This document shows, piece by piece, positions 22,218-54,296 of a stretch of 64,000 nucleotides of DNA. A program made the position numbers and the translations under genes. Every line of letters starts with the position of its first letter. The first letter of the stretch is position 1. Source of the DNA: Alistipes sp. (GTDB lineage Bacteria; Bacteroidota; Bacteroidia; Bacteroidales; Rikenellaceae); the NCBI GenBank assembly GCA_045614985.1, contig JAZLDX010000025.1, positions 39,177 to 103,176 on the forward strand, written 5' to 3'. The notes below the pieces were generated by a model, which was not told the DNA's origin, did no database searches, and saw nothing but the letters and a program-made list of their open reading frames with translations.

Positions 22218-23762
22218 TTAGAGGCTCAATTTCTTGAACAAACGGGCAAACGAGCACTCCTCATCTACCATACGCTTCAGGTCACTGATGGCGATGCGCT
22301 CCTGCTGCATCGAGTCGCGATGACGCACCGTAACGGTTCCGTCCTCCAGGGTCTGTCCATCGACCGTCACACAGAAAGGAGTACCCACAGCATCCTGACG
22401 GCGGTAACGCTTGCCTACCGAGTCCTTCTCGTCGTAAACCACATTGTAGTCGTACTTGAGTTCGTCCACAATCTTGCGGGCCACCTCAGGCATGCCATCC
22501 TTCTTTACCAAGGGCAGCACGGCCACCTTGACGGGGGCGAGGGCTGCGGGGAGCTTCAGCACCACACGCTGATCGCCACCCTCGAGGGCCTCCTCGGTAT
22601 AGGCAGCCGACATCACCTGCAAGAACATACGATCCACACCGATCGAGGTCTCCACCACATAGGGGACATAACTCTCACCACGCTCGGCATCGAAGTACTG
22701 AATCTTCTTACCCGAGAACTCCTGGTGGCGACCCAAGTCGAAGTCCGTGCGCGAGTGAATACCCTCCACCTCTTTGAATCCGAAGGGGAAGTTATACTCC
22801 ACATCGGTAGCGGCATTGGCGTAGTGGGCCAACTTCTCGTGGTCGTGGAAACGATAGTTCTCGTCACCGAAACCGAGGGCGCGGTGCCAAGCCATACGGG
22901 TCTCCTTCCACTTCGACCACCACTCCATCTCCGTACCGGGCTGCACGAAGAACTGCATCTCCATCTGCTCGAACTCGCGCATGCGGAAGATGAACTGACG
23001 AGCCACGATCTCGTTGCGGAAGGCCTTACCGATCTGGGCAATACCAAAGGGGAGCTTCATGCGGCCCGTCTTCTGCACATTAAGGAAATTCACGAAGATA
23101 CCCTGTGCCGTCTCGGGACGCAGGTAGATGGTGTTGGCACCCTCGGCCGTCGAACCCATCTGGGTCGAAAACATGAGGTTGAACTGGCGCACATCGGTCC
23201 AGTTGCGCGTACCCGAGATAGGGCAGACGATCTCGCAGTCGAGAATGATCTGCTTGAGCTCCTCCAGGTCATTCTCGTTCAGCGCCTTCGTGAAACGATC
23301 CAATACAACCTGCTTCTTTTGGGCAATCTCCAACACACGGGGCGAAGTCGAACGGAACTGTTCCTCGTTGAAGGCCTCGCCAAAACGCTTCTTGGCCTTA
23401 TCAACCTCCTTCTGCATCTTCTCGTCCTGCTTGGCCATCCAATCCTCCACAAGCACATCAGCGCGGTAACGCTTCTTCGAGTCGCGGTTGTCGATCAACG
23501 GATCATTGAAGGCGCCCACATGGCCCGAAGCCTCCCAAGTTTTGGGGTGCATGAAGATCGCGGCATCAATACCCACGATATTCTCGTGGAGCTTGACCAT
23601 CGAATCCCACCAATAGCGTTTGATGTTGTTCTTAAGCTCCACACCATTCTGTCCGTAATCGTAAACGGCACCCAGGCCATCGTAAATCTCGCTCGAGGGG
23701 AATACGAATCCATACTCCTTGCAGTGAGCGACCAACTTCTTAAAGAGTTCTTCCTGTGTCAT
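22218..23762 (-). CDS. glyQS: Glycine--tRNA ligase (homodimeric type)
   Basis: EIYDG...YDYG..G.ELK, LRPETAQGIF, FRNEI...FIFRMREFEQME, GKRYRRQD; promoter TATCTTTG at 23812-23819 (-). Confidence 0.96.
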   Translation of the reverse strand: MTQEELFKKLVAHCKEYGFVFPSSEIYDGLGAVYDYGQNGVELKNNIKRYWWDSMVKLHENIVGIDAAIFMHPKTWEASGHVGAFNDPLIDNRDSKKRYRADVLVEDWMAKQDEKMQKEVDKAKKRFGEAFNEEQFRSTSPRVLEIAQKKQVVLDRFTKALNENDLEELKQIILDCEIVCPISGTRNWTDVRQFNLMFSTQMGSTAEGANTIYLRPETAQGIFVNFLNVQKTGRMKLPFGIAQIGKAFRNEIVARQFIFRMREFEQMEMQFFVQPGTEMEWWSKWKETRMAWHRALGFGDENYRFHDHEKLAHYANAATDVEYNFPFGFKEVEGIHSRTDFDLGRHQEFSGKKIQYFDAERGESYVPYVVETSIGVDRMFLQVMSAAYTEEALEGGDQRVVLKLPAALAPVKVAVLPLVKKDGMPEVARKIVDELKYDYNVVYDEKDSVGKRYRRQDAVGTPFCVTVDGQTLEDGTVTVRHRDSMQQERIAISDLKRMVDEECSFARLFKKLSL

Positions 23763-23921
23763 ATATCGTTAATTTTTGTTGTCTTTATTTTGTTCGTTCG
23801 ATTACAACCTGCAAAGATACAAAATAATTAGGAATGAGGAATTATTTGATTCAAAATTATTTTTACGGTTCGACCACGGGAGAGATTCTAAATTAACCCA
23901 TGAGGCGGCAATCGGGCCATG

Positions 23922-23938
23922 TTGGCACAATCCTTGCC
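23922..23938 (+). promoter_or_regulatory. Putative sigma-54 (-24/-12) promoter for crcB-ure operon
   Basis: TTGGCACAATCCTTGCC = TGGCAC-N5-TTGC with exact GG-N10-GC spacing, ~32 nt before the crcB ATG; no TAnnTTTG on this strand in the intergenic region. Confidence 0.7.
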
Positions 23939-23969
23939 TGCCAAGGGCAAAGAATCGCAAAAACAAAAT

Positions 23970-24350
23970 ATGCCTATGATACGCTTGATGCTAATAGCCG
24001 GAGCCGGTGGCTTTTTGGGAACCTGCCTCCGATTTTTGGTGGGACGCTATATGCACCACATCGCCCCTGCGACAGCCTTTCCATGGGGTACCTTTGTTGT
24101 CAATGTGGTGGGGTCGCTCCTGATCGGAGTGCTCTACGGCCTCTCCGAAAAGCACCACCTGCTCTCTCCGGCCGCCTCGGCCCTGCTGATCACGGGCCTC
24201 TGCGGAGGTCTTACCACCTTCTCCTCCTTTGCCGACGACCTCTATCTGTTGCTTGCCGAACGCCACCAGGTACTCTTCGTGGTCTACCTTGTGATGAGCT
24301 TTGCCCTGGGTCTTACGATGGTGATGCTCGGACGAGCCGTCATAAAATAA
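23970..24350 (+). CDS. crcB: Fluoride efflux channel Fluc/CrcB
   Basis: GAGGFLGTCLRF, FPWGTF.VN..GS..IG, GLCGGLTTFSSF; start at 23970 or 23976. Confidence 0.93.
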   Translation: MPMIRLMLIAGAGGFLGTCLRFLVGRYMHHIAPATAFPWGTFVVNVVGSLLIGVLYGLSEKHHLLSPAASALLITGLCGGLTTFSSFADDLYLLLAERHQVLFVVYLVMSFALGLTMVMLGRAVIK

Positions 24351-24379
24351 AGAGAATGCAAAATTTTATAACTCTTGAT

Positions 24380-24407
24380 TCCTAATACCTAATTTCTAAT
24401 TCCTAAA
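24380..24407. repeat. Tandem heptamer repeats before ureA
   Basis: TCCTAAT ACCTAAT TTCTAAT TCCTAAA; inverted relative to ATTAGGA ATGAGGA at 23827-23840. Confidence 0.65.
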
Positions 24408-24411
24408 AACT

Positions 24412-24714
24412 ATGCATTTAACACCGAAAGAGATTGAAAAGCTGATGCTTTTATCGCTGGGTCAGGTGGCCGAGCGACGCAAAGCCAAGGGGTTGAAGCT
24501 CAACTACCCCGAAGCCGTGGCCTACATCACGGCAAGTGCCCTGGAGGGTGCCCGCGAAGGCAAGAATGTAGAGCAGGTCATGAAGGAGGCTGCCCAGGTA
24601 CTCCGTCGCGAAGATGTGATGGAGGGGGTTGCCGACATGATCGGGCTCTTGCAGATCGAGGCGGTATTCACCGACGGATCGAGACTCGTAAGTATTCACC
24701 AACCAATCAAATAG
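24412..24714 (+). CDS. ureA: Urease gamma subunit
   Basis: [40 protein letters not shown]. Confidence 0.97.
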
Positions 24715-24716
24715 AC

Positions 24717-25223
24717 ATGAAAAACAGTTCTCTCTATCCCTGCGAGGCAGGGTTTGTACCTCGGAAGGCCGTACCAGTCGGCGGACTTCTTTTTGCCGAG
24801 GAGCCGATCCAATACAACGAGGGACGCCCCGTAATCACTTTGTCCGTGAAAAACAGGGGAGATCGTCCGATTCAGATAGGCTCCCATTTCCACCTCTTCG
24901 AGGCCAATCGCTACTTGGAATTCGACCGCAAAGCGGCCTTCGGATGCCATCTGAACATCCCCGCCACCACCGCCATTCGCTTCGAGCCCGGAGATGAAAA
25001 GCAGGTCGAGGCGGTCCCCTTCGGCGGAAAACAGCGCATCATCGGCTTCAACGGGTTGGTACAAGGCTACACCGGAGGAGAGGATGCGCCGATCTACGAT
25101 CCGACGAAACATCGGGCCATCCACCGCATGAAAAAACTCGGCTTCTGCCACACGGAGTCGCAGGACTGCGGCCACGACGAAAAGAAAGATTCAACCACAA
25201 CGAGCAAAACAAAAGAAGAATAG
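24717..25223 (+). CDS. ureB: Urease beta subunit
   Basis: [41 protein letters not shown]. Confidence 0.97.
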
Positions 25224-25226
25224 ACA

Positions 25227-26945
25227 ATGGCTACAATTTCACGACAGGCCTACTGCGACCTCTTCGGTCCGACGGTAGGCGATAAAATCCGCCTCGGGGA
25301 TACGGATCTCTATGTAGAGATCGAAAAGGATCTGCGCGTTTACGGCGACGAGGTGGTCTATGGCGGAGGCAAAACCTTGCGCGATGGCATGGGGCTGGCC
25401 AACGGCACCTCATCGAAAGAGGGGTCGCTCGATCTGGTCATCACCAATGTAACGATCATCGACCCCGTACTGGGCATCGTTAAGGCGGATGTTGGGATCA
25501 AAGATGGTAAAATTGCCGGCATCGGCAAATCGGGAAACCCCGACACGATGCCCGGGGTCTCGCCCGAATTGGTTACAGGAGCCTCGACCGATGCCATCTC
25601 GGGCGAGCATCTGATTCTGACGGCAGGCGGTATTGACGGCCATGTCCACATGATCGCCCCGCAGCAGGCCGAGGCGGCCCTCTCGAACGGAATTACCACC
25701 CTGATCGGGGGTGGCGTGGGCCCCACGGATGGCACCAACGGCACGACAATCACCTCGGGGGTTTGGAACGTGGAGCGCATGTTGGAGGCGGCCGAAGCAT
25801 GGCCGGTCAACATCGGGCTGTTGGGCAAGGGGAACTGCTCGGGCAAACAATCCGTAGCCGAACAACTCGAAGCGGGCTGCTGTGGTCTGAAGATCCACGA
25901 GGATTGGGGCTCTACCCCCCAGGCGATTCGCACCGCCCTGAAGGTGGCCGACCGCTACGATGTACAGGTAGCCATCCACACCGACACCTTGAATGAGGGG
26001 GGCTATGTCGAGGATACGATTGCCGCCTTCGAGGGACGCACGATCCACACCTATCACACCGAGGGTGCAGGCGGAGGCCATGCCCCCGACCTGTTGAAGG
26101 TGGCCTCGATGCACAACGTCCTCCCTTCGTCCACCAACCCCACCCTGCCCTTCGGCATCAACTCGCAGGCCGAGCTCTTCGATATGATCATGGTGTGCCA
26201 CAACCTCAATCCGAAGATCCCCTCCGATGTTTCGTTTGCCGAGAGCCGCGTACGCACCGAGACACAGGCCGCCGAAAATATGCTCCACGACCTGGGGGTA
26301 TTATCCATGGTTTCGTCCGACTCCCAGGCCATGGGACGCGTGGGCGAGAGCTTCATGCGCACCTTCCAGATGGCCTCCTACATGAAGCAGGCTTGCGGAA
26401 GGCTGAAGGAGGACTGCTCCGAGAACGACAACTTCCGCGTCAAGCGTTACTTGGCGAAGATCACCCTCAACCCAGCCATCTGCTTCGGCATTTCGGACTA
26501 TGTGGGCTCGATCGAAAAGGGCAAGGTGGCCGACCTGGTCCTGTGGGATCCCGCCATGTTCGGAGCCAAGCCCAAGATGGTGATCAAGGGCGGCATGATC
26601 AGCTGGGCCAACATGGGCGATCCGAACGCCTCGTTGCCCACCCCGCAACCGATGTGCTACCGTCCGATGTTCGGAGCCTACGGATCGGCCCTCAAGCGCA
26701 GCTGCATCTCCTTCGTATCGCGAGCAGCCTGCGAACTCGGCATCAAAGAGCGTTTGGGCCTCGAGCGTTGCGTGAAGCCCGTTCACCACACCCGACAGCT
26801 CACCAAAGAGCACATGTGGATGAATGGCTCGACCCCCAAGATCGAGGTAGACAGCCAAACCTTCGAGGTGCGCATCAACGGAGAGGTGGTATCGCTCAAG
26901 CCGACCGAAAAGGTGGCTCTGGGACAACTCTATTGGTTCAGCTGA
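25227..26945 (+). CDS. ureC: Urease alpha subunit
   Basis: Ni ligands and flap intact: [49 protein letters not shown]. Confidence 0.98.
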
Positions 26946-27541
26946 TGGCCGGCGAGATCATTTCCCGGATTTTGGGGAATCGAGCCGAAAAGGGTTGGGC
27001 CGAGAGGCTCTCCCACGGCTCGATTGACACCCTGGAACTCGACCGATGGACGGCTCAGAAGAGCCGCCTCATCGGCCGCAGTTCGCGGGGCGAGGAGGTG
27101 GCCGTTGCCCTGAACCGTCCCCAGCGGCTCCACGACGGCGACATTCTACGCTACAATCCCTCAACCGGAGAGGCCCTGGTCGTACACCTACGCCTTGGCG
27201 AGGTGCTGGTGATCGACCTCGAGGAGCCGAAGGGAGGATCACCCGAGGAGCATCGGGAGCGCCTTTTCGAGTTGGGCCACGCCATCGGCAACCAACATTG
27301 GCCCGCCGTGATTCACGACAAGCGGGTCTATGTCCCCCTGGCGGTAGATCGCAAGGTGATGCAGAGTGTCCTCGAGAGCCACCGCTTCGAGGGGATTTCC
27401 TTCCACTTCGAGGCGGGCAACGAGGTGATTCCCTACCTCTCGCCCCACGAGATTCGCCGCCTGTTTGCCGGAGCCGACCCCCACGAACACAAGCACGAAC
27501 ACCAAAAAGAGGGCACCCATGATCCCCACGGAAAAGAGTAA
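26945..27541 (+). CDS. ureE: Urease accessory nickel chaperone UreE
   Basis: ATG overlaps the ureC TGA; QKSR, L.DGD.L, ELGHAIGNQHWPA, short His-rich tail (HEHKHEH). Confidence 0.92.
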   Translation: MAGEIISRILGNRAEKGWAERLSHGSIDTLELDRWTAQKSRLIGRSSRGEEVAVALNRPQRLHDGDILRYNPSTGEALVVHLRLGEVLVIDLEEPKGGSPEEHRERLFELGHAIGNQHWPAVIHDKRVYVPLAVDRKVMQSVLESHRFEGISFHFEAGNEVIPYLSPHEIRRLFAGADPHEHKHEHQKEGTHDPHGKE

Positions 27542-28229
27542 TCGCTCGGTCTGTGAACTTTTTCGGCTGATGGAGTTCTCCGACTCTGCCCTGCCTGTGG
27601 GAGGTTTCAGTTTCTCATGTGGGGTGGAAACAGCCACAGCCTGTGGAATGATTCACGACGAAGAGTCGCTCGGAGAGTATCTGCTCGCGACGGCCCGTCA
27701 GGTCGCAACCTGCGACGGCGTGGCCGCCCTTGCAGCTCACCGCGCCATTCTCCGTCAGGACTGGGAGGCCTTTGCGGCCGCTGACCATCGGATTGGGCTC
27801 TTCAAGACGGGAGATGAAAATCGCCGTATGAGCCTGCGCATGGGCCACAAACTCGGTCAATTGACCCGACAAGTACTCCCCCAAAAGGAGATTATCAAGT
27901 GGAGCGAAGCTGTGATGCGGGGTAAAATCGAGGGGCACCATGCCCCGATGCTGGGGTTGCTCTTTGCCCTCACCGGACAAAACGAAGAGCAACTCTTCGC
28001 CTCGCTACTCTATGGGACAGCGTCCCAAATCACGGGAGCAGCCCTACGCCTGATGCGCATAGACCACTTCGCCACCCAACGCCTGCTCTACGCCTTGGGC
28101 GAAGAGGTCGCGAGGCTTTATGAGGAGCTCTCCCCACTCGAGATGGGGGAGATGCACCTATTCGGCCCCGAACGCGAGATCCTGGCCTCAATGCACGAAG
28201 AGGGCCCGCAACGTATGTTTATGAATTAG
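27519..28229 (+). CDS. ureF: Urease accessory protein UreF
   Basis: [29 protein letters not shown]-terminal HEEG..RMFMN. Confidence 0.93.
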
Positions 28230-28341
28230 CGCCGGAGGTGCGCACTCCGCTCCTCCTTTTCCCCAAAAACCTCCTCCGCAACCGAAAAAAAAATCGGAAG
28301 AGAAAATAAACGGAACAAAACGAAAATACCGAAGAATCGAA

Positions 28342-28971
28342 ATGAGTTGCAGAATTGGAATCGGCGGCCCCGTGGGATCGGGAAAGACCGCCCTGATCGA
28401 AGCCCTTGTCCCCCGCCTGCTTGAGCGAGGGCTTCAAGTGCTGGTTATCACCAACGACATTGTTACCACAGAGGACGCCCAACACGTCCGACGCACGCTG
28501 AAAGGGGTGCTCCACGAGGATCGCATCCTCGGTGTGGAGACCGGAGCCTGCCCTCACACGGCCGTGCGAGAAGACCCATCGATGAACTTAGCCGCTGTCG
28601 AGGAGATGGAGAACCGTTTCCCCGAGACGGATGTGGTATTGATTGAGTCGGGAGGCGACAACCTCACGCTCACCTTCAGCCCCGCCCTGGTGGATTTCTT
28701 CATCTATGTGATCGACGTGGCGGCCGGCGACAAAATTCCCCGCAAGGACGGCCCAGGAATCTCTCAATCGGATATCCTGGTAATCAACAAGTTCGACCTG
28801 GCCCCCTATGTAGGAGCCTCGCTCGAGGTAATGAAGCGCGATTCGGAGAAGATGCGCCCCGGGAAACCCTTTATTTTTACAAACTGCATGACGGGCGAAG
28901 GAATTGAAGAACTCCTGAGACTAATTTTTCGCATGGCTCTTTTCGACCTCGAAACACCTACTGAAGCGTGA
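28342..28971 (+). CDS. ureG: Urease accessory GTPase UreG
   Basis: [40 protein letters not shown]. Confidence 0.97.
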
Positions 28972-29885
28972 AATCCGAATTCCAACATATACGCGAACTG
29001 CGCCCCTACCTAAGCGACCCCCCTGCTATGGCCGCCGGAGGAGCCGGGAAACGAGGCTACTTATACCTCGGTTTCGAATGCAACAGCCAAGGGAAGACTT
29101 TGTTGCGCCATTGGGAACGCCGCGCCCCGATGATCGTACAGCAGGCCCTCTACTTCGACGAACGCCTCCCCTCGATGGCTTGTGTCTATATGCTCTCGGC
29201 CGGCGGCCCGCAGGTGGATGGCGACCGCTACCGTTGCGAGGTGCATGCCGGAGCCCAAAGCGAGGTACACCTCTCGACGGGAGCCGCCACCAAGGTGGCT
29301 ACCATGCGCCACAACTTTGCCGCCTCAGAGCAGCATTTCAGGCTCGACGATGGGGCCTACATGGAGTATCTGCCCGAGCCGGTGATCCCGGCCCGCGGAG
29401 CCCGACTTTGGAGTCACACAGAACTTACGATCGCCCCCTCAGCCACCCTCTTCTATGGGGAGTGTTACCTCTCGGGGCGACACCACCACCTCGAAGAGCG
29501 ATTCCAGTACGACCTACTCTCACTCAATCTCCGGGCACAACGACCCTCGGGAGAGGAGCTTTTTTGCGAGAAAATTCTGCTCGAACCCGCGCGGCACACC
29601 CCCACGGGATTGGGGGTGATGGGTCGGTATGAACTCTTTGCCACGGCCCTAATCCTGACGCCTCCCCCACAACGCGAGGCAATCCTAAAACGGGTACGGG
29701 AGCTGATTGGCTTTCGGTCGGAGTGGGCTCTCGGGATCCTCCGCCTACCCTCTGATGCGGGGCTCGTCTGCCGCATCTTAAGCCGGCAGAGCGACGAAGC
29801 CAAGAGGCTGCTGCGCACCCTCTGCTCGGCCACGCGCGAGGTGATAAAGGGGGTTCCGATGCCCGAGGAGTTTCCCTGGCGATAG
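28968..29885 (+). CDS. ureD: Urease accessory protein UreD
   Basis: GTG start overlapping the ureG stop; [18 protein letters not shown]; ends PEEFPWR. Confidence 0.9.
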
Positions 29886-29933: not shown

Positions 29934-30959
29934 ATGGAAAACAATCTTTCAACTGAAAATTCCCTGCGGGGAATGATCTGCGGCACCGGCCAAGTGATGT
30001 TTCAACAAAACCTTTGGTGCAGCCTGCTCTTTTTGATCGGTATCTTTTGGGGTGCCTGGGCCGAGGGACGGATCTCGGTGGCCTGGGGCGGATTGGTCGG
30101 ACTCATCGTCTCCTACCTCACGGGGCGTATCTTGGGGCTCAAAGCCGAAGAGGGCGAGCAGGGCTTGTGGGGTTTTAACGGCGTTTTGGTCGGTTGTGCA
30201 ATCATGACCTTCCTGAGAAGTACCCCGCTGACCTGGTGCATCCTCATCCTGGGAGCTGCCCACACGGTTTGGCTGCGCGAAGGATTGAACCGCATCATGG
30301 CCAAATGGAAAGTAAACTCGATGACCATGCCCTTTGTCCTGACCACCTGGATGTTGCTGCTTGCCGCACGCGGACTGAACGGGCTTCCGATCGAGGGGCT
30401 TTCGACTCCGATGTTCCCCCACGCCGCAACGGCCCACATCGCCACCGGACCGCTCCACCTGCTCCTCTATTGGCTGCGCGGCATCGGTCAAGTCTTTCTG
30501 ATCGACTCCTGGATCACGGGACTCTTCTTCCTGGCGGGCCTGATCGCCGCAAACGGCTGGTCGGCCTTTTGGGCCGCCTTCGCCTCAGCCCTCTCGCTCG
30601 CCGTGGCCCTGCTATTCGATGCGCCGGGATTGGGTATCAGCGAAGGACTCTACGGCTTCAGCCCCGTATTGACGGGCATTGCCTTGGGTTCGATCTTCTA
30701 CCACCCCTCATGGCGTTCGGCTCTCTGGGCCATTGTCGGCATTGTGATCACACTCTTTGCCCAGGCAGCCACCAATTCGCTGCTCTCTCCGCTGGGTCTA
30801 CCCTCACTCACGGCCCCCTTCTGTTTTGTTACCTGGGTATTCCTGCTCCCGATGTTTTCGCTCGAGAAGCACCCCTTCTCCAAAAAGAGAGAGACCCCCA
30901 GCCACGAGGCCGACCACTCGGATTGGAACCCCGCCCGCAAACCCCACCTCAAAGGATAG
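29934..30959 (+). CDS. Urea transporter (UT/Yut family channel)
   Basis: Duplicated halves: GQVMF...GLWGFNG...SMTMPF and GQVFL...GLYGFS...LPSLTAPF; about 10 TM segments. Confidence 0.9.
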   Translation: MENNLSTENSLRGMICGTGQVMFQQNLWCSLLFLIGIFWGAWAEGRISVAWGGLVGLIVSYLTGRILGLKAEEGEQGLWGFNGVLVGCAIMTFLRSTPLTWCILILGAAHTVWLREGLNRIMAKWKVNSMTMPFVLTTWMLLLAARGLNGLPIEGLSTPMFPHAATAHIATGPLHLLLYWLRGIGQVFLIDSWITGLFFLAGLIAANGWSAFWAAFASALSLAVALLFDAPGLGISEGLYGFSPVLTGIALGSIFYHPSWRSALWAIVGIVITLFAQAATNSLLSPLGLPSLTAPFCFVTWVFLLPMFSLEKHPFSKKRETPSHEADHSDWNPARKPHLKG

Positions 30960-30983: not shown

Positions 30984-31014
30984 AAGCCCACCGGAGATTG
31001 TCCGGTGGGCTTGT
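30984..31014 (+). terminator. Hairpin closing the urease operon
   Basis: AAGCCCACCGGA-GATTG-TCCGGTGGGCTT. Confidence 0.65.
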
Positions 31015-31113: not shown

Positions 31114-33126
31114 ATGGAAAACCAAAAAATGCAAAACTCCCTGCCGGAAAACGCCTATCGCGAACTCAAAGCCGGTGAAGAGTACAAACCCATGATGCCC
31201 GATACTCCCGCTCCGGTAGAGGTAACCCCCTACTCGGTGGGTATGGGTATTCTGATGGCCGTGATCTTCTCGGCCGCCGCCGCCTTCCTCGGCCTGAAGG
31301 TGGGTCAGGTCTTCGAGGCCGCCATCCCGATCGCCATCATCGCTGTAGGTGTGGGCTCAATTTTGGGAAAGAAGAACATGTTGGGCCAAAATGTGATCAT
31401 TCAGTCGATCGGAGCCTCGTCGGGCGTGATCGTAGCCGGTGCTATCTTTACCCTTCCGGCCCTCTACATCCTGGGGCTGGAGGCTCAATTCTATCAGGTC
31501 TTTCTCTCGTCGCTCCTGGGCGGTGTGTTGGGTATCGTCCTGATGATCCCCTTCCGTAAGTATTTCGTCAAGGAGATGCACGGCAAGTACCCCTTCCCGG
31601 AGGCTACGGCCACTACCGAGGTACTCGTATCGGGTGAGAAGGGTGGCAACCAAGCCAAACTGCTGGCCGTGGCCGGCCTTGTGGGAGGTCTCTACGACTT
31701 CGTGGTGGGCACCTTCGGTTTTTGGACCGACTCGATCTCCACGCGCATCTCGCAGTGGGGCGTGGCCTTGGCCGAGAAGCACAAAGTGGTCTTTGGTCTG
31801 AATACCTCGGCCGCTGTATTGGGTTTGGGTTACATCATCGGCCTGAAGTATGCCGTCATCATCACCGCTGGTTCGTGCCTCGTTTGGTTCTTCATCGTAC
31901 CGCTCGTAGGCTCGCTGGCCGAGTCGATCGACCCCTCGACGCTGATCGCTTCGTTGGGTGTTACGGCCAACCACATCCTCGAGAACCCCTCGCAGATCCT
32001 CACCCCCGAGAATCTCTACCAATACATTGGTCGTCCGATCGGTATTGGTGGTATCGCCATGGCCGGTCTGATCGGTATCGTGCGCCAGGCCGGCATCATT
32101 AAGTCGGCCCTCGGATTGGCCGTATCGGAGCTCGGAGGCAAGAAGACGGAGAGTGCCACGGAGGTACGCACGCAGCGTGATCTCTCGATGAAGTTGATCC
32201 TCTCGGTGCTCTGCGCCGCCCTGATCACCACCTTCATCTTCTTCCAATTTGGTGTGCTCAACAACTGGGGACAGTCGATCGTGGCCATTCTGATCGTCTT
32301 TGTGATCGCCTTCCTCTTTACGACCGTAGCGGCCAACGCCATCGCCATCGTGGGCTCGAACCCTGTATCAGGCATGACGCTCATGACGCTGATTCTCTCG
32401 TCGCTGGTCTTGGTCAGCGTGGGTCTGACGGGCAAGAGTGGCATGACGGCCGCCCTGATCATCGGTGGCGTGGTCTGCACCGCCCTCTCGATGGCTGGAG
32501 GTTTCATTACCGACCTCAAGATCGGTTACTGGCTCGGCACCTCGCCTCGCAAGCAGGAGGGTTGGAAGTTCCTCGGCACAGCCATCTCGGCCGCCACGGT
32601 AGCAGGCGTGATCCTGGTACTTAATGCCGCCTATGGCTTTGACACGGCCAACAACCCCGAGGCCCTGGTGGCTCCGCAAGCTAACGCCATGGCGGCCGTG
32701 ATCCAGCCCCTGATGACGGGAGGACAGACCCCCTGGGCCCTCTACTTCATCGGTGCCGCTTTGGCTCTCGTTCTGACGGCCATCGGTATCCCTGCCTTGG
32801 CCTTTGCTTTGGGTATGTTCATTCCGATGCACCTGAATGCCCCGCTGGTAGTGGGTGGCTTGGTTTCGTGGTTCGTATCGGGTCGCTCGAAGGATCAGGA
32901 ACTCAACAAGGCCCGCACGGATCGTGGTACGCTGATCGCCTCGGGCTTCATCGCCGGAGGTGCCCTGATGGGCGTGGTAAGTGCTGTACTGAAGTTCGCC
33001 GGCGTGGATTGGCGCCTGGCTGAGTGGGCTTCGTCGAATGCCGCCGAGTGGTGCGGTGTAGCGGCCTACCTCTGCCTGATTGGCTACTTCATCTGCCACA
33101 CCATGAAGGCCAAGAAGGAGGAGTAG
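31114..33126 (+). CDS. OPT-family oligopeptide transporter
   Basis: GLKVGQVFEAAIP, FPEATAT..VL, DLK.GY.LG..PR.Q, APQAN.M; multiple TM segments; TAGTTTTG promoter at 31049-31056. Confidence 0.92.
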   Translation: MENQKMQNSLPENAYRELKAGEEYKPMMPDTPAPVEVTPYSVGMGILMAVIFSAAAAFLGLKVGQVFEAAIPIAIIAVGVGSILGKKNMLGQNVIIQSIGASSGVIVAGAIFTLPALYILGLEAQFYQVFLSSLLGGVLGIVLMIPFRKYFVKEMHGKYPFPEATATTEVLVSGEKGGNQAKLLAVAGLVGGLYDFVVGTFGFWTDSISTRISQWGVALAEKHKVVFGLNTSAAVLGLGYIIGLKYAVIITAGSCLVWFFIVPLVGSLAESIDPSTLIASLGVTANHILENPSQILTPENLYQYIGRPIGIGGIAMAGLIGIVRQAGIIKSALGLAVSELGGKKTESATEVRTQRDLSMKLILSVLCAALITTFIFFQFGVLNNWGQSIVAILIVFVIAFLFTTVAANAIAIVGSNPVSGMTLMTLILSSLVLVSVGLTGKSGMTAALIIGGVVCTALSMAGGFITDLKIGYWLGTSPRKQEGWKFLGTAISAATVAGVILVLNAAYGFDTANNPEALVAPQANAMAAVIQPLMTGGQTPWALYFIGAALALVLTAIGIPALAFALGMFIPMHLNAPLVVGGLVSWFVSGRSKDQELNKARTDRGTLIASGFIAGGALMGVVSAVLKFAGVDWRLAEWASSNAAEWCGVAAYLCLIGYFICHTMKAKKEE

Positions 33127-33168
33127 CTCCTTTCAATTCAAAATTCAGAATTCATTTTTAATAGAAAT

Positions 33169-34386
33169 ATGCAACTAATCGATAGATTCCTGAAATATGT
33201 TTCGTTTGACACACAGTCGGACGAGAACAGCGAGACCTTCCCCTCAACCGAAAAACAGAAGGTTTTATTGAATTACCTCAAAGAGGAGATGGAGACCTTG
33301 GGACTGACTGAGGTAACAATGGACGAGTATGGCTATGTGATGGGTACAATTCCCGCCTCGGAGGGGTATGAAAATAGCCCCGTGATCGGCTTCATCGCCC
33401 ACGTCGACACAGCCCCCGACATGAGTGGCAAGGATGTAAAACCGCGCATTGTAGAGGATTACGACGGCGGCGACCTGATTCTCAACGGCCAGCTCACGAT
33501 GAAGGTTTCGGACTTCCCCGAACTCTCGTTCTTCAAGGGTCACACGCTCATTCACACCGACGGCACCACCCTGCTGGGCGCCGACGACAAGGCCGGTGTG
33601 GCCGAGATCATGTCGGCAGCCGAGTACCTGATGAGCCACCCCGAGCACAAACACGGTAAGATCCGCATCGGCTTTACGCCCGATGAGGAGATTGGTCGCG
33701 GAGTAGACTACTTCAATGTCGAAAAATTCGGGGCCGACTTCGCCTACACGATGGACGGCGGCTTCGAGGGCGAATTGGAGTACGAAAATTTCAACGCCGC
33801 AGGAGCCAAGATCCACATCCAGGGTCGCAATGTGCATCCGGGCGCAGCCAAGGGCAAGATGCTCAACGCCATCGATATTGCCTGCGAGCTGAACCAGCTG
33901 CTTCCCGCTACGCAGCGTCCGCAGTTCACCGAGGGCTACGAGGGCTTCTTCCACTGCGTAGGCTTCAAGGGTACGGTCGAGGAGGCCGACCTGCAATACA
34001 TCATCCGCGACCACGACATGGAGCTCTTCGAGAAGAAGAAGAACTTCATGGTGGCTTGTGTCGAGCACCTGAACCACAAGTACTCGGCCGGCATTGTGTC
34101 GCTCCAGATCAAGGATCAGTACTTCAACATGCGCAAGATGGTGGAGCCGCACCCTCAGGTTATCGAGAAGGCCAAGGAGGCAATGCGTATGGTGGATGTA
34201 GAGCCCATCGTGAAGCCCATTCGTGGCGGTACGGACGGTTCGCGTCTCTCTTTCATGGGACTGCCCTGCCCCAATCTCTTCACCGGTGGCATGAACTTCC
34301 ATGGCAAATTTGAGTACTGCTCGCTGACGACGATGCAGAAGGCCACGCAGGTAATCTTGAACCTGGCCTCGCTTTGGGCAAAATAG
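33169..34386 (+). CDS. pepT: Peptidase T (tripeptidase, M20B)
   Basis: RFLKYV..DTQSD, AHVDT, LGADDKAG, FTPDEEIG, IRGGTDG, N.HG..E. Confidence 0.95.
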   Translation: MQLIDRFLKYVSFDTQSDENSETFPSTEKQKVLLNYLKEEMETLGLTEVTMDEYGYVMGTIPASEGYENSPVIGFIAHVDTAPDMSGKDVKPRIVEDYDGGDLILNGQLTMKVSDFPELSFFKGHTLIHTDGTTLLGADDKAGVAEIMSAAEYLMSHPEHKHGKIRIGFTPDEEIGRGVDYFNVEKFGADFAYTMDGGFEGELEYENFNAAGAKIHIQGRNVHPGAAKGKMLNAIDIACELNQLLPATQRPQFTEGYEGFFHCVGFKGTVEEADLQYIIRDHDMELFEKKKNFMVACVEHLNHKYSAGIVSLQIKDQYFNMRKMVEPHPQVIEKAKEAMRMVDVEPIVKPIRGGTDGSRLSFMGLPCPNLFTGGMNFHGKFEYCSLTTMQKATQVILNLASLWAK

Positions 34387-34406
34387 TAGAACCTAATCGA
34401 ATAACA

Positions 34407-36332
34407 ATGAACCCCTATGGTTTCTTTAAGGTCGCAGGCGCCATTCCCGCAGTGCGGGTTGGCGACTGCGCCTTCTTGGCGGATCGCCACATCGAACTGA
34501 TCCGCCGAGCCACCGAGCGCGGTGCGGAACTTGTCGCCTTCCCTGAGCTCTCTCTCACTGGCTACACCTGTGGTGATCTCTTCCTGCAACCCAACCTCAT
34601 GCAGGCAGCAGAAAAAGCTCTTAAGGAGATCGTGCGGACTACAGCCGACTGCCCCATTGCAGCAGTGGTCGGCATGCCTATCGTAGCAGGAGGTCGCCGC
34701 TACAACTGCGCCGTAGCCTTCTCGCAAGGCGAAATTTTGGGCGTAGTGCCCAAGAGCTATCTCCCGAACTACGGAGAATTCTACGAACCTCGTTGGTTCG
34801 CTTCAGGGGCCAACATCAAGGGAAGTCTCGTAGAACTTTGTGGCCAGGAGGTCCCCTTCGGAGTGGATGTGATGCTCAAGATCAACGGGGTGGAGTGCGG
34901 CATAGAGATCTGTGAAGACCTGTGGGTACCCAATCCCCCCTCGGCAGCCCTTGCCCAGGGGGGTGCCCGCATCCTCATCAACCTCTCGGCATCGCCCGAG
35001 GTGGTGGGAAAGTATGCCTACCTACGCTCGCTTGTCAGTCAGCAGTCGGCCCGTCTTCGTGCAGGCTACCTCTATGTATCGTCGGGCTTCGGAGAATCCT
35101 CGACCGACCTGGTCTTCGGGGGCAACATCCTCATTGCCGACCAGGGCGAGTGGGTGGCCGAGAGCGAACGATTCTCTCTCGAGGAGCAGTTGCTTTGTGC
35201 CGAGATTGATGTGGAGCGCATCGAGGTGGAGCGCACGCGTACCAACACCTTTGCTCCTCTGCACAACGAAGCCTCCTTCCTGCTTTGTCCCTGTGCATTT
35301 GAGCCCAAAGAGAGCCCCTTCGAGCGAAAGATCAACCCCATGCCCTTCGTTCCGGCCAATGAAGCCACGCGCCACGCCCGATGCGAAGAGATCTTCCAAA
35401 TTCAAGCCATGGGATTGGCCAAACGCCTCGAACACACCCACTGCCGATCGGTGGTGCTGGGTATCTCGGGAGGTTTGGACTCAACCCTGGCCCTATTGGT
35501 CGTGGTCAAGGCATTCGACAAGTTGGGGCTCGACCGCCGAGGAATCTACGGCATCACGATGCCGGGCTTCGGCACGACGGATCGCACCTACCGCAATGCC
35601 CTCGACCTGATGGATCAGTTGGGCATCACACAGGCCGAGATCTCGATCGCCAAGGCGGTCAATCAACACTTCGCCGACATCGGACTCGACCCCGCAGACC
35701 GTTCGGCCACCTATGAAAATTCGCAGGCGCGCGAACGCACGCAGATCCTCATGGACTACGCCAACAAGGTGGGAGGCTTAGTGATCGGCACGGGCGACTT
35801 GAGCGAGTTGGCCCTGGGTTGGGCCACCTACAACGGCGACCACATGTCGATGTATGGAGTAAACGGCTCGATTCCCAAGACCCTGGTGCGCCACCTTGTG
35901 CGCACAGCAGCCGAGCAGTTGGGAGGTGAAGTCGAAAAGACCCTCTTGGATATTGTCGATACCCCCGTCAGCCCCGAACTGCTGCCGGCTGACGAGAAGG
36001 GCGAAATTGCGCAAAAGACCGAGGATTTAGTGGGTCCCTACGAGTTGCACGACTTCTTCCTCTATCACTTCATTCGACGCGGAGCCTCCCCCCGAAAACT
36101 CCTATTCCTCACGGATCAGGCCTTCGCGGGTCGCTACTCGCGTGAGGTGATTCTCCACTGGATGGAGGTCTTCTTCCGCCGCTTCTTCTCGCAGCAGTTC
36201 AAGCGTTCGGCACTGCCCGATGGCCCCCAGGTGGGCTCGGTGAGTCTCTCGCCGCGTGGCGACTGGCGCATGCCCTCGGATGCCTCGGCGGCAGTATGGT
36301 TGGCGGAAATAGAGACCTTGAAAAAGGAGTAG
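34407..36332 (+). CDS. nadE: Glutamine-dependent NAD+ synthetase
   Basis: Nitrilase domain (FPELSLTGY, VPK.YLPNY.EFYE, EICEDLW) plus synthetase domain (GISGGLDSTLA, GTGDLSE, SPEL). Confidence 0.96.
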   Translation: MNPYGFFKVAGAIPAVRVGDCAFLADRHIELIRRATERGAELVAFPELSLTGYTCGDLFLQPNLMQAAEKALKEIVRTTADCPIAAVVGMPIVAGGRRYNCAVAFSQGEILGVVPKSYLPNYGEFYEPRWFASGANIKGSLVELCGQEVPFGVDVMLKINGVECGIEICEDLWVPNPPSAALAQGGARILINLSASPEVVGKYAYLRSLVSQQSARLRAGYLYVSSGFGESSTDLVFGGNILIADQGEWVAESERFSLEEQLLCAEIDVERIEVERTRTNTFAPLHNEASFLLCPCAFEPKESPFERKINPMPFVPANEATRHARCEEIFQIQAMGLAKRLEHTHCRSVVLGISGGLDSTLALLVVVKAFDKLGLDRRGIYGITMPGFGTTDRTYRNALDLMDQLGITQAEISIAKAVNQHFADIGLDPADRSATYENSQARERTQILMDYANKVGGLVIGTGDLSELALGWATYNGDHMSMYGVNGSIPKTLVRHLVRTAAEQLGGEVEKTLLDIVDTPVSPELLPADEKGEIAQKTEDLVGPYELHDFFLYHFIRRGASPRKLLFLTDQAFAGRYSREVILHWMEVFFRRFFSQQFKRSALPDGPQVGSVSLSPRGDWRMPSDASAAVWLAEIETLKKE

Positions 36333-39019: not shown

Positions 39020-40438
39020 CTAAATCTGTTTGCGCAGGCGGGCGACAGGAATACCCAGCATCTCGCGGTATTTGGCCACCGTGCGACGGGCTATGCGATA
39101 TCCCTTGTCGTTAAGCATCACCATGAGGGTCTCGTCGGTCAAGGGGCGACGCTTCTCCTCGCCATCAATAAAGCGTTGCAGCAGGGTCTTCACCTCATAG
39201 CTCGACACCTCCTCGCCCGAATCGGTCTGCATCGCCTCCGAGAAGAGCGATTTCAGCAAGATGATGCCGAAGGGCGTTTGCACATATTTACTATTAACGA
39301 CACGCGAGATGGTCGAGACATCGAGCCCCGTACGGTCGGCGATATCTTTAAGAATCATCGGGCGCAACTTCGACTTGTCACCATCGCGGAAATACTCCAT
39401 TTGGTAGTTCAGGATCTCCTGCATGGTACGCATCAGCGTGTCGTGTCGCTGGCGGATAGCCGAGATAAACCACTTGGCCGAGTCAATCTTCGACTTCACG
39501 AACTGCACCGCTTCACGATTCTCGCTCTTGACCGAGCCGTCGGGCTGCACCATCTCGCGCATCATCTCCACATAGCGACGATTGATCTTCACCTCGGGAA
39601 CCCCCGTGGAGTTGAGCGAGAGGTCGAACTGCCCATCGTGGTAGTCGAGTACAAAGTCGGGAATGATATAGGGGGTCGCCTCACTCCCCCCTTCGGCATA
39701 GAGGTTTCCGGGCTTGGGCGAGAGGTGGCGAATCTCTTGCAACGCCTCGCGAAACTCCTCCTCCGAGACCTGCAAACGCTGAATCAGCTTCTCGTAGTGT
39801 TTTTTGACAAACTCCTCGAAGTTGTGTTCAAGGATTCGCTTGGCCAATCGGCGCGACCGGGTGGTCGGTGGGATCTGATTCATCTGCAATAAAAGGCACT
39901 CTCGCAGATCGCGAGCTCCGATGCCGGCCGGCTCCAACTCGTGAATCACCTCAAGAAGTCGCTCCAATTCTTGCTCCGAGGTCTCAATGCCGAGCGTAAA
40001 GGCGATGTCGTCGGCAATCGAGAAGAGCTCGCGCCGAAGGTAGCCGTCCTCGTCGATCGACCCAATCAGGTAGACCGCCAGACGCAACTGTCGCTCCGAG
40101 AGGTTGCGATAACCGAGCTGCTCGACCAAATACTCCTGCAACGAACGCCCACCCGAGAGGTAGACCGTGCGCTGCTTGTCGTCCTTCGAAAAGTTGTTGA
40201 TGCGACTCTTATAGGCTGGGGTATCATCCTCTTTGAGATACTCCTCCACGGAGATTTGACGGGGCTCCTCCTCAGCGTCCCCCTGTCGCTCCTCCTCTAA
40301 GACAATATTCTCCTCGATCTCCTGCTTAATGCGTTGTTCGAGTTGCATGGTGGGGAGCTCCAGCAACTTGATCATCTGAATCTGCTGCGGAGAGAGCTTC
40401 TGCTGAAGCGTCAGGAGTTGTTTTTGGTTTATTGCCAT
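39020..40438 (-). CDS. rpoN: RNA polymerase sigma-54 factor
   Basis: Q/L-rich region I, P.GIGAR.L.ECL, STISRV, RpoN box ARRTVAKYRE. Confidence 0.97.
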   Translation of the reverse strand: MAINQKQLLTLQQKLSPQQIQMIKLLELPTMQLEQRIKQEIEENIVLEEERQGDAEEEPRQISVEEYLKEDDTPAYKSRINNFSKDDKQRTVYLSGGRSLQEYLVEQLGYRNLSERQLRLAVYLIGSIDEDGYLRRELFSIADDIAFTLGIETSEQELERLLEVIHELEPAGIGARDLRECLLLQMNQIPPTTRSRRLAKRILEHNFEEFVKKHYEKLIQRLQVSEEEFREALQEIRHLSPKPGNLYAEGGSEATPYIIPDFVLDYHDGQFDLSLNSTGVPEVKINRRYVEMMREMVQPDGSVKSENREAVQFVKSKIDSAKWFISAIRQRHDTLMRTMQEILNYQMEYFRDGDKSKLRPMILKDIADRTGLDVSTISRVVNSKYVQTPFGIILLKSLFSEAMQTDSGEEVSSYEVKTLLQRFIDGEEKRRPLTDETLMVMLNDKGYRIARRTVAKYREMLGIPVARLRKQI

Positions 40439-53999: not shown

Positions 54000-54224
54000 T
54001 TCCGCCCGCACAAAAGCCCCAAAGGGAGGGAGCATAGAGAGCAAAATAAACGAGAAGTGTTTCATGGTGCAAGGTGAATATCTAAAGACAGGAATATTTT
54101 CGATCAGAGAGGTTTTGGGGCCCATTTTTGACTTTTTTACATTTTTTTGGCAAAATTGTTGGTCGATTCATTTTTTTTTATCATCTTTGCACCCGCAATA
54201 GAGGAGAACCCGTTTCTCCGGAAG

Positions 54225-54296
54225 GCCGAAATAGCTCAGCGGTAGAGCACTTCACTCGTAATGAAGGGGTCCCGAGTTCAAATCTCGGTTTCGGCT
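54225..54296 (+). tRNA. tRNA-Thr(CGT)
   Basis: GCCGAAA-TAGCTCAGCGGTAGAGCA-CTTCACT-CGT-AATGAAG-GGGTCCCGAGTTCAAATCTCGG-TTTCGGC-T; CCA not encoded. Confidence 0.96.

Follow-up and report, generated by a model that had tools for sequence, protein, structure and literature searches.

The crcB-urease gene cluster in the 64-kb stretch of DNA analysed here (the window) is probably headed by a sigma-54 promoter, the reading that, on sequence comparison, best explains the evidence as a whole, and urease is likely a new sigma-54 target in Bacteroidales, with the motif kept in about 35 related species. The core, TGGCACAATCCTTGC (with its preceding base TTGGCACAATCCTTGC, 23922-23937 on the + strand), matches TGGCAC-N5-TTGC at 10/10 core positions, and its −24 GG (23924-23925) and −12 GC (23936-23937) doublets are exactly 10 nt apart, the canonical sigma-54 spacing, with C rather than the canonical A/T at −11. 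It is oriented toward crcB, whose start at 23976 lies 38 nt downstream, and simple arithmetic with the C at 23937 taken as −12 places the predicted +1 at about 23949. Exact TGGCAC-N5-TTGC occurs once in the 64 kb with both strands scanned; dinucleotide shuffles gave an expectation of 0.06 exact cores per window, with at least one in 6 of 100 shuffles, and one-mismatch cores showed no enrichment (three found versus 4.06 expected). An earlier, sequence-only reading, which first pointed to this promoter, had put the chance of such a match at 2e-4 per 200 bp, which is correct as arithmetic but ignores the roughly 50 intergenic regions that were read. Taken alone, the exact match is thus weak, only suggestive evidence; the case rests on context and conservation and is made by comparison with relatives. 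Elsewhere in the window, TGGCAAAATTGTTGGT at 54148-54163 (+), in the spacer before a tRNA at 54225, is a weak −24/−12-like string with a poor −12 region and probably arises by chance.

Genes in the window were identified by Pfam (crcB, ureA, ureB, ureC, ureE, ureF, ureG, ureD and a UT urea transporter) and are collected with the other features in Table 1. The crcB start is most likely the ATG at 23976, which aligns with the ATG of the closest related locus (L001, see below), with ATG 23970 also possible; a longer crcB reading frame from 23919 would include the motif. The Bacteroidetes primary-sigma box TAnnTTTG, seen ahead of about 16 other lead genes in the window, was not found on the + strand in 23763-23975 or in the 61-nt crcB-ureA spacer, and this spacer also had no terminator-like site and no stable fold (z = −0.37). 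Given the spacer devoid of such signals, the hairpin after the transporter and the TAnnTTTG boxes that the OPT gene behind this hairpin has of its own, we predict a unit crcB-ureABCEFGD-UT of about 7 kb; the sole ground for placing ureA in one transcript with crcB is the absence of recognisable signals in those 61 nt. The sequence-only reading had likewise described the exact −24/−12 spacing and correct orientation of the motif, a short A-rich leader after the predicted start, the lack of TAnnTTTG before crcB on the + strand and a spacer free of TAnnTTTG and terminator, all of which were borne out by our signal scans and folding analysis.

Table 1. Features of the predicted crcB-urease unit and related elements in the window.
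Feature	Position	Strand	Evidence or remark
Sigma-54-type core TGGCACAATCCTTGC	23923-23937	+	Exact match; conserved in L001 and 33/36 related loci
Predicted transcription start	23947-23951	+	Inferred solely from the −12 position
A-rich unstructured leader	23949-23975	+	Fold z = +1.73; no Rfam family
crcB (Fluc fluoride channel)	23976-24350	+	PF02537, 4e-27; GGLTTFSSF in translation
crcB-ureA spacer, 61 nt	24351-24411	+	No recognisable promoter or terminator
ureA (urease gamma)	24412-24714	+	Pfam
ureB (urease beta)	24717-25223	+	Pfam
ureC (urease alpha)	25227-26945	+	Pfam
ureE, ureF, ureG, ureD accessory genes	26945-29885	+	Pfam; TAnnTTTG absent before ureG and ureD
UT-family urea transporter, last gene of predicted unit	29934-30959	+	PF03253, 1e-87
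GC-rich 12-bp hairpin 3′ of transporter, likely operon terminator	30984-31012	+	z = −3.73
Class II aminoacyl-tRNA synthetase, divergent from crcB	22218-23762	-	Pfam
TATCTTTG, Bacteroidetes sigma-A −7 box of the divergent synthetase gene	23812-23819	-	Conserved in L001; outside the sigma-54 unit
rpoN (sigma-54), all three domains, RpoN box ARRTVAKYRE	39020-40438	-	Pfam; box in translation

No fluoride riboswitch (RF01734) or other family was found in an Rfam scan of the crcB leader at two thresholds, nor was RF01734 found in 16 related loci. Rfam did match the Helicobacter antisense RNA 5_ureB_sRNA above its gathering score at 25377-25677 (-). We rejected the sRNA reading: the match runs antisense to ureC, over its conserved 5′ part, and 11 of 16 scanned related loci show it too, coding conservation being the most likely explanation. 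Public RNA runs holding the window or either of two related loci (L007 and L056) consisted of assembled contigs, whole-region or fragmentary, and were uninformative on 5′ ends. Behind the urease unit, 31114-36332 encodes an OPT oligopeptide transporter, an M20 peptidase and a glutamine-dependent NAD synthetase (NadE), and is a nitrogen-scavenging neighbourhood under ordinary promoters.

For comparison, we assembled 80 Bacteroidales loci by a ureA-based scan with one genome per species. The best matches were Rikenellaceae, Alistipes and Tidjanibacter metagenome-assembled genomes, and the DNA runs containing the window sequence were bovine gut metagenomes. L001 is the sole locus among the 80 that shares the synteny of the window, with identities of 98% for the synthetase, 76% for CrcB and 89% for UreA, and between the two TGGCACAATCCTTGCC is identical at 16/16 nt, the sole conserved island in otherwise diverged intergenic DNA. 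Along the alignment of window 22218-24714 with L001:1666-4300, identity falls exactly at the synthetase start. This drop, the contrast between the 98% identity of the synthetase and the lower values of CrcB and UreA, and the absence of this synthetase next to the urease cluster in any locus besides these two suggest that the urease cluster was exchanged or relocated among Rikenellaceae.

A further 36 loci have crcB immediately 5′ of ureA but on the other strand. Across the 80 loci, the 700-nt regions preceding ureA (54 kb) contained 7 exact cores and 12 with one mismatch, as against a background of 1 exact and 14 one-mismatch cores in the 605 kb making up the rest of the loci. An unbiased k-mer count in the 36 spacers placed TGGCAT, GGCATA and TTTGCC on top, and when the spacers were anchored on the motif, information content was limited to TGGCA and TTTG, the flanks being random. 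The only conserved block 5′ of ureA, TGGCAY-N5-TTTG(C/A/T), occurs in 33 of these 36 Alistipes/Rikenellaceae/Tidjanibacter loci, 31-146 nt before the ATG and with fixed internal spacing and orientation. Scored with a matrix of the sites, the 200 nt next to ureA reached 13 bits or more in 33/36 loci with divergent crcB and in 0/44 other Bacteroidales loci (Muribaculaceae, Odoribacter, Barnesiella, Sphingobacterium and others), and the motif would be a trait of the Rikenellaceae lineage (Alistipes, Tidjanibacter and relatives). Among 24 unique urease sites, C is present at −12 in 50%, and −11 is mostly occupied by C instead of the canonical A/T. One base separates the window core from TGGCATAATCCTTGCC, the ureA-facing site of L007, and L056, from Alistipes senegalensis, carries TGGCACACTCTTTGAC 83 nt before ureA. 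The alternative that the motif is a sigma-A −7 box was rejected, the four bases before TTTG in the ureA-facing sites not being TAnn, and TAnnTTTG itself is present on the + strand in merely one of the 36 divergent-crcB loci. The sequence-only reading had proposed looking for the motif at orthologous operons, and there it proves conserved, in L001 and in 33 of the 36 Rikenellaceae-type loci, amid diverged flanks.

These comparisons bear directly on whether the match is a product of chance or a functionless relic, which we now consider highly improbable. At least one exact match does turn up in about 6% of shuffled 64-kb windows, and no enhancer-binding protein (EBP) was found nearby, in the window or the 80 loci; against this, L001 retains every base of the motif in a spacer that has otherwise diverged, 33 of 36 species-level relatives have it between flanks that are not conserved, and no alternative promoter is visible upstream of crcB.

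Some ureA upstream regions have further features. Two tandem ureA-facing motifs, TGGCAAACCTTGTGCC and TGGCACGCAATTTGTC, are present 54 nt apart in L064:3509-3578. Longer ureA leaders (~72-83 nt) in L023, L048, L049, L056 and L071 have a common GCCGTCGATC-like sequence, and another leader block, of 50 nt, is common to L004 and L007; Rfam gave no match for these leaders, and the shared blocks could be leader-level regulatory elements.

When the ureA-facing site was masked and the same matrix was run on the minus strand between this site and crcB, a second motif facing crcB emerged, mostly 21-47 nt from the crcB start (e.g. L014:2434-2449(-) and L010:3836-3851(-)). Shuffling gave p < 0.05 for it in 27 of 33 loci (binomial 6e-30), and the crcB-facing segments had a median score of 9.3 bits versus −1.1 on the wrong strand, used as control. 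The −24 elements of the two motifs are 1-145 nt apart, mostly 14-44. The usual Rikenellaceae layout thus appears to be two outward-facing sigma-54-type motifs, one for crcB and one for the urease genes, and this promoter type is not specific to urease, crcB in the relatives having its own copy. In the window and L001, crcB is co-directional with ureA behind a single motif, and the window, like L001, would represent a fused, single-promoter arrangement.

A single motif of this kind might serve crcB alone, with ureA depending on a weak promoter of its own that escaped recognition, either in the 61-nt spacer or within crcB. The distance of 38 nt between motif and crcB in the window does resemble that of the crcB-facing motifs of relatives, and the crcB-ureA spacer of L001, at 163 nt, would suffice for a promoter. 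However, neither spacer has TAnnTTTG, a sigma-54-like motif or a terminator, and the window core is only one base away from a ureA-facing site, that of L007. Moreover, ureA in the relatives always has its own sigma-54-type motif, and loss of this motif without replacement implies read-through from crcB, so that we consider exclusive service of crcB unlikely.

The paired layout also bears on the possibility that the motif is not a promoter at all and is instead the operator of a dimeric factor, such as a nitrogen or urea regulator, acting on GGCA-N8-TGCC, with transcription coming from an unrecognised sigma-A promoter. The window core is partly palindromic (GGCA...TGCC), with a score of 8.4 bits when read on the minus strand; the reverse strand of several other sites scores well, about half of the ureA-facing sites read TTTGCC and so form a 4-bp inverted repeat with GGCA, and the two copies per spacer in relatives are readable as two operators. 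Conservation is nevertheless asymmetric, since TGGCA[C/T]A does not mirror TTTG, and TTTG persists in sites where TTTGAA, TTTGTT or TTTGAC destroys the palindrome. Furthermore, on either side the motif always points toward its downstream gene, the two copies are separated by anything from 1 to 145 nt, no TAnnTTTG lies downstream of the sites, some of which are merely 31 nt from the ATG, and groES is preceded by the same architecture (see below). An operator is accordingly given a low probability here, and a sigma-54 promoter is retained as the preferred reading.

Imperfect inverted repeats of 33 nt (73% complementary; 84% in a 19-nt core), rich in AATTAGGAAT/ATTCCTAATT, flank the promoter-plus-crcB segment at 23826-23858 and 24362-24394, and may, speculatively, be the trace of an inversion that turned crcB toward ureA. 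A contig (X25) joining 23844 to 24378 was discarded, as it matched only AT-rich repeats, over 19 and 24 nt.

The groES genes provided an independent calibration. The urease-derived matrix matches TGGCACGAAATTTGTA, at L066:1265-1280(-), 36 nt before a Cpn10 (groES) gene, and in a groES-based scan of metagenome contigs (L081-L160), 75 of 76 Bacteroidales loci had TGGCAC-N5-T[T/A][T/C/G]G(C/T)(A/T) at 39-105 nt upstream of the groES ATG. In these groES sites, GG and the −13 G are invariant while C occupies −12 in 61% of 46 unique sites, which shows that the −12 C of sigma-54 promoters is weakly conserved in Bacteroidales and that the textbook GC rule is relaxed there. Since the same matrix finds groES promoters, and groES and grpE are reported to be sigma-54-dependent in Bacteroides thetaiotaomicron (PMC12316311), the urease motif most plausibly belongs to the local sigma-54 promoter class. 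In the same 2025 survey, chaperone genes are the main sigma-54-enriched class in Bacteroidota, and urease COGs are enriched for sigma-54 promoters mainly in alpha- and beta-Proteobacteria, not Bacteroidota (PMC12316311); in Flavobacterium psychrophilum, −24/−12 promoters were validated by transcription start mapping and reporter mutagenesis (PMC9723704). The claim of the sequence-only reading that a sigma-54 promoter heads the crcB-urease genes and that urease is a member of the RpoN regulon is therefore supported, as far as sequences can tell, by L001, by the 33/36 versus 0/44 loci and by the groES match; its remark that sigma-54 is little characterised in Bacteroidota was overstated, the field being less uncharted than implied (PMC9723704, PMC12316311).

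The sigma factor itself is encoded in the window: an rpoN gene 15 kb from the motif, as the earlier reading had it, was confirmed with an intact RpoN box, and has an Asn/Asp/Lys-type synthetase gene as neighbour. Sigma-54 promoters need a cognate AAA+ EBP (PF00158, GAFTGA loop), usually with upstream sites. EBP patterns (GAFTGA/Walker-A) were not found in the six frames of the 64-kb window, and tblastn with an approximate NtrC central domain gave no hit better than E = 0.26, either in the window or among the 80 loci, which span 4 kb either side of ureA (loci up to 8.3 kb). The suggestion that 23820-23920 carries the activator site did not hold up, as this region has no block common to the window and L001, and a search in 34 loci yielded no dyad in more than 3/34, with the top k-mers all being coding sequence. 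The shortest divergent spacers, at 101 nt, are too small to accommodate an activator site outside the two promoters, and −24 elements mostly 14-44 nt apart leave no space for a shared one between them. No glnA, amtB or glnK genes were found in the window or loci, and a nitrogen signal is proposed from gene content alone.

In the mechanism we favour, polymerase with RpoN would bind the motif as a closed complex, an AAA+ EBP encoded elsewhere in the genome would open it, and transcription would begin near 23949 and yield one ~7-kb mRNA, crcB-ureABCEFGD-UT, ending at the hairpin that follows the transporter. The relatives would differ in that crcB and ureA face apart, each behind its own sigma-54-type motif, whereas in the window and L001 one promoter would drive both. 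Its physiological logic is likely to obtain nitrogen by scavenging urea in the bovine gut, and the gene content (urea channel, urease and maturation factors) points to such use of urea.

The high sensitivity of urease to fluoride would be the reason for expressing the fluoride channel along with it. Indeed, crcB adjoins ureA in 41 of the 80 Bacteroidales urease loci, being divergent in 36 (among L002-L071, e.g. L058:3893-4000) and co-directional in L001, L015, L017, L029 and L031, as it is in the window. A literature search found no paper describing crcB-urease linkage. The pairing makes sense because fluoride strongly inhibits urease, 0.3 mM causing 50% inhibition (PMC5508371), and it may protect the enzyme; it also suggests that fluoride is a relevant stress for ureolytic gut bacteria. 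More tentatively, and with considerable doubt, CrcB and urease in Rikenellaceae could form a dedicated sigma-54 module, usually back-to-back and fused here, that is switched by an EBP, possibly without a conventional upstream site, and in which fluoride export is co-induced specifically to protect the nickel enzyme in the gut. Were this so, a Fluc channel would be seen in a new physiological role and Bacteroidota would gain a new sigma-54 regulon.

Bacteroidales of the gut and rumen recycle host urea. If the conserved sigma-54 promoter is real, the urease of Alistipes and its relatives would be under all-or-none, activator-gated control, pointing to a specific sensor protein, and a metabolic target would be added to a Bacteroidota sigma-54 regulon so far known mainly for chaperone, envelope-stress and gliding-motility genes. 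The weak conservation of the −12 C in Bacteroidales matters, in addition, for genome-wide promoter prediction.

Several known systems invite comparison. The crcB genes controlled by the fluoride riboswitch (Rfam RF01734) encode the same Fluc/CrcB channel, but there is no such riboswitch in the window or 16 related loci, and crcB here seems to be controlled when transcription initiates, together with urease. Divergent sigma-54 promoter pairs are exemplified by hyc/hyp of Escherichia coli under FhlA, where the activator sites lie between the promoters. The divergent crcB/ureA loci similarly have two outward-facing sigma-54-type promoters serving functionally linked units but, unlike hyc/hyp, their −24 elements are close (mostly 14-44 nt) and no conserved sequence lies between them. 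Proteobacterial urease and urea-transport operons under NtrC and sigma-54 likewise have a sigma-54 promoter directly before the urease genes, with a shared presumed link to nitrogen supply; they belong to another phylum, NtrC-type sites or an EBP were not identified in the window or loci, and crcB and a UT-type channel take the place here of the urtABCDE transporter in the Proteobacterial urease units. A further comparison is with the sigma-54 promoters of Bacteroidota heat-shock and quality-control genes (B. thetaiotaomicron groES/grpE; motif SM4 of F. psychrophilum), which agree with the urease motif in −24 TGGCAC, −12 T(T)G(C/T) and spacing, are also located 30-150 nt before the start codon and show the same weakly conserved −12 C. 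The urease motif differs from them in that −11 is mostly C, as against A/T at groES sites, in being restricted to Rikenellaceae-type loci, unlike the groES promoters, and in its targets, with urea catabolism and a fluoride channel in place of chaperones.
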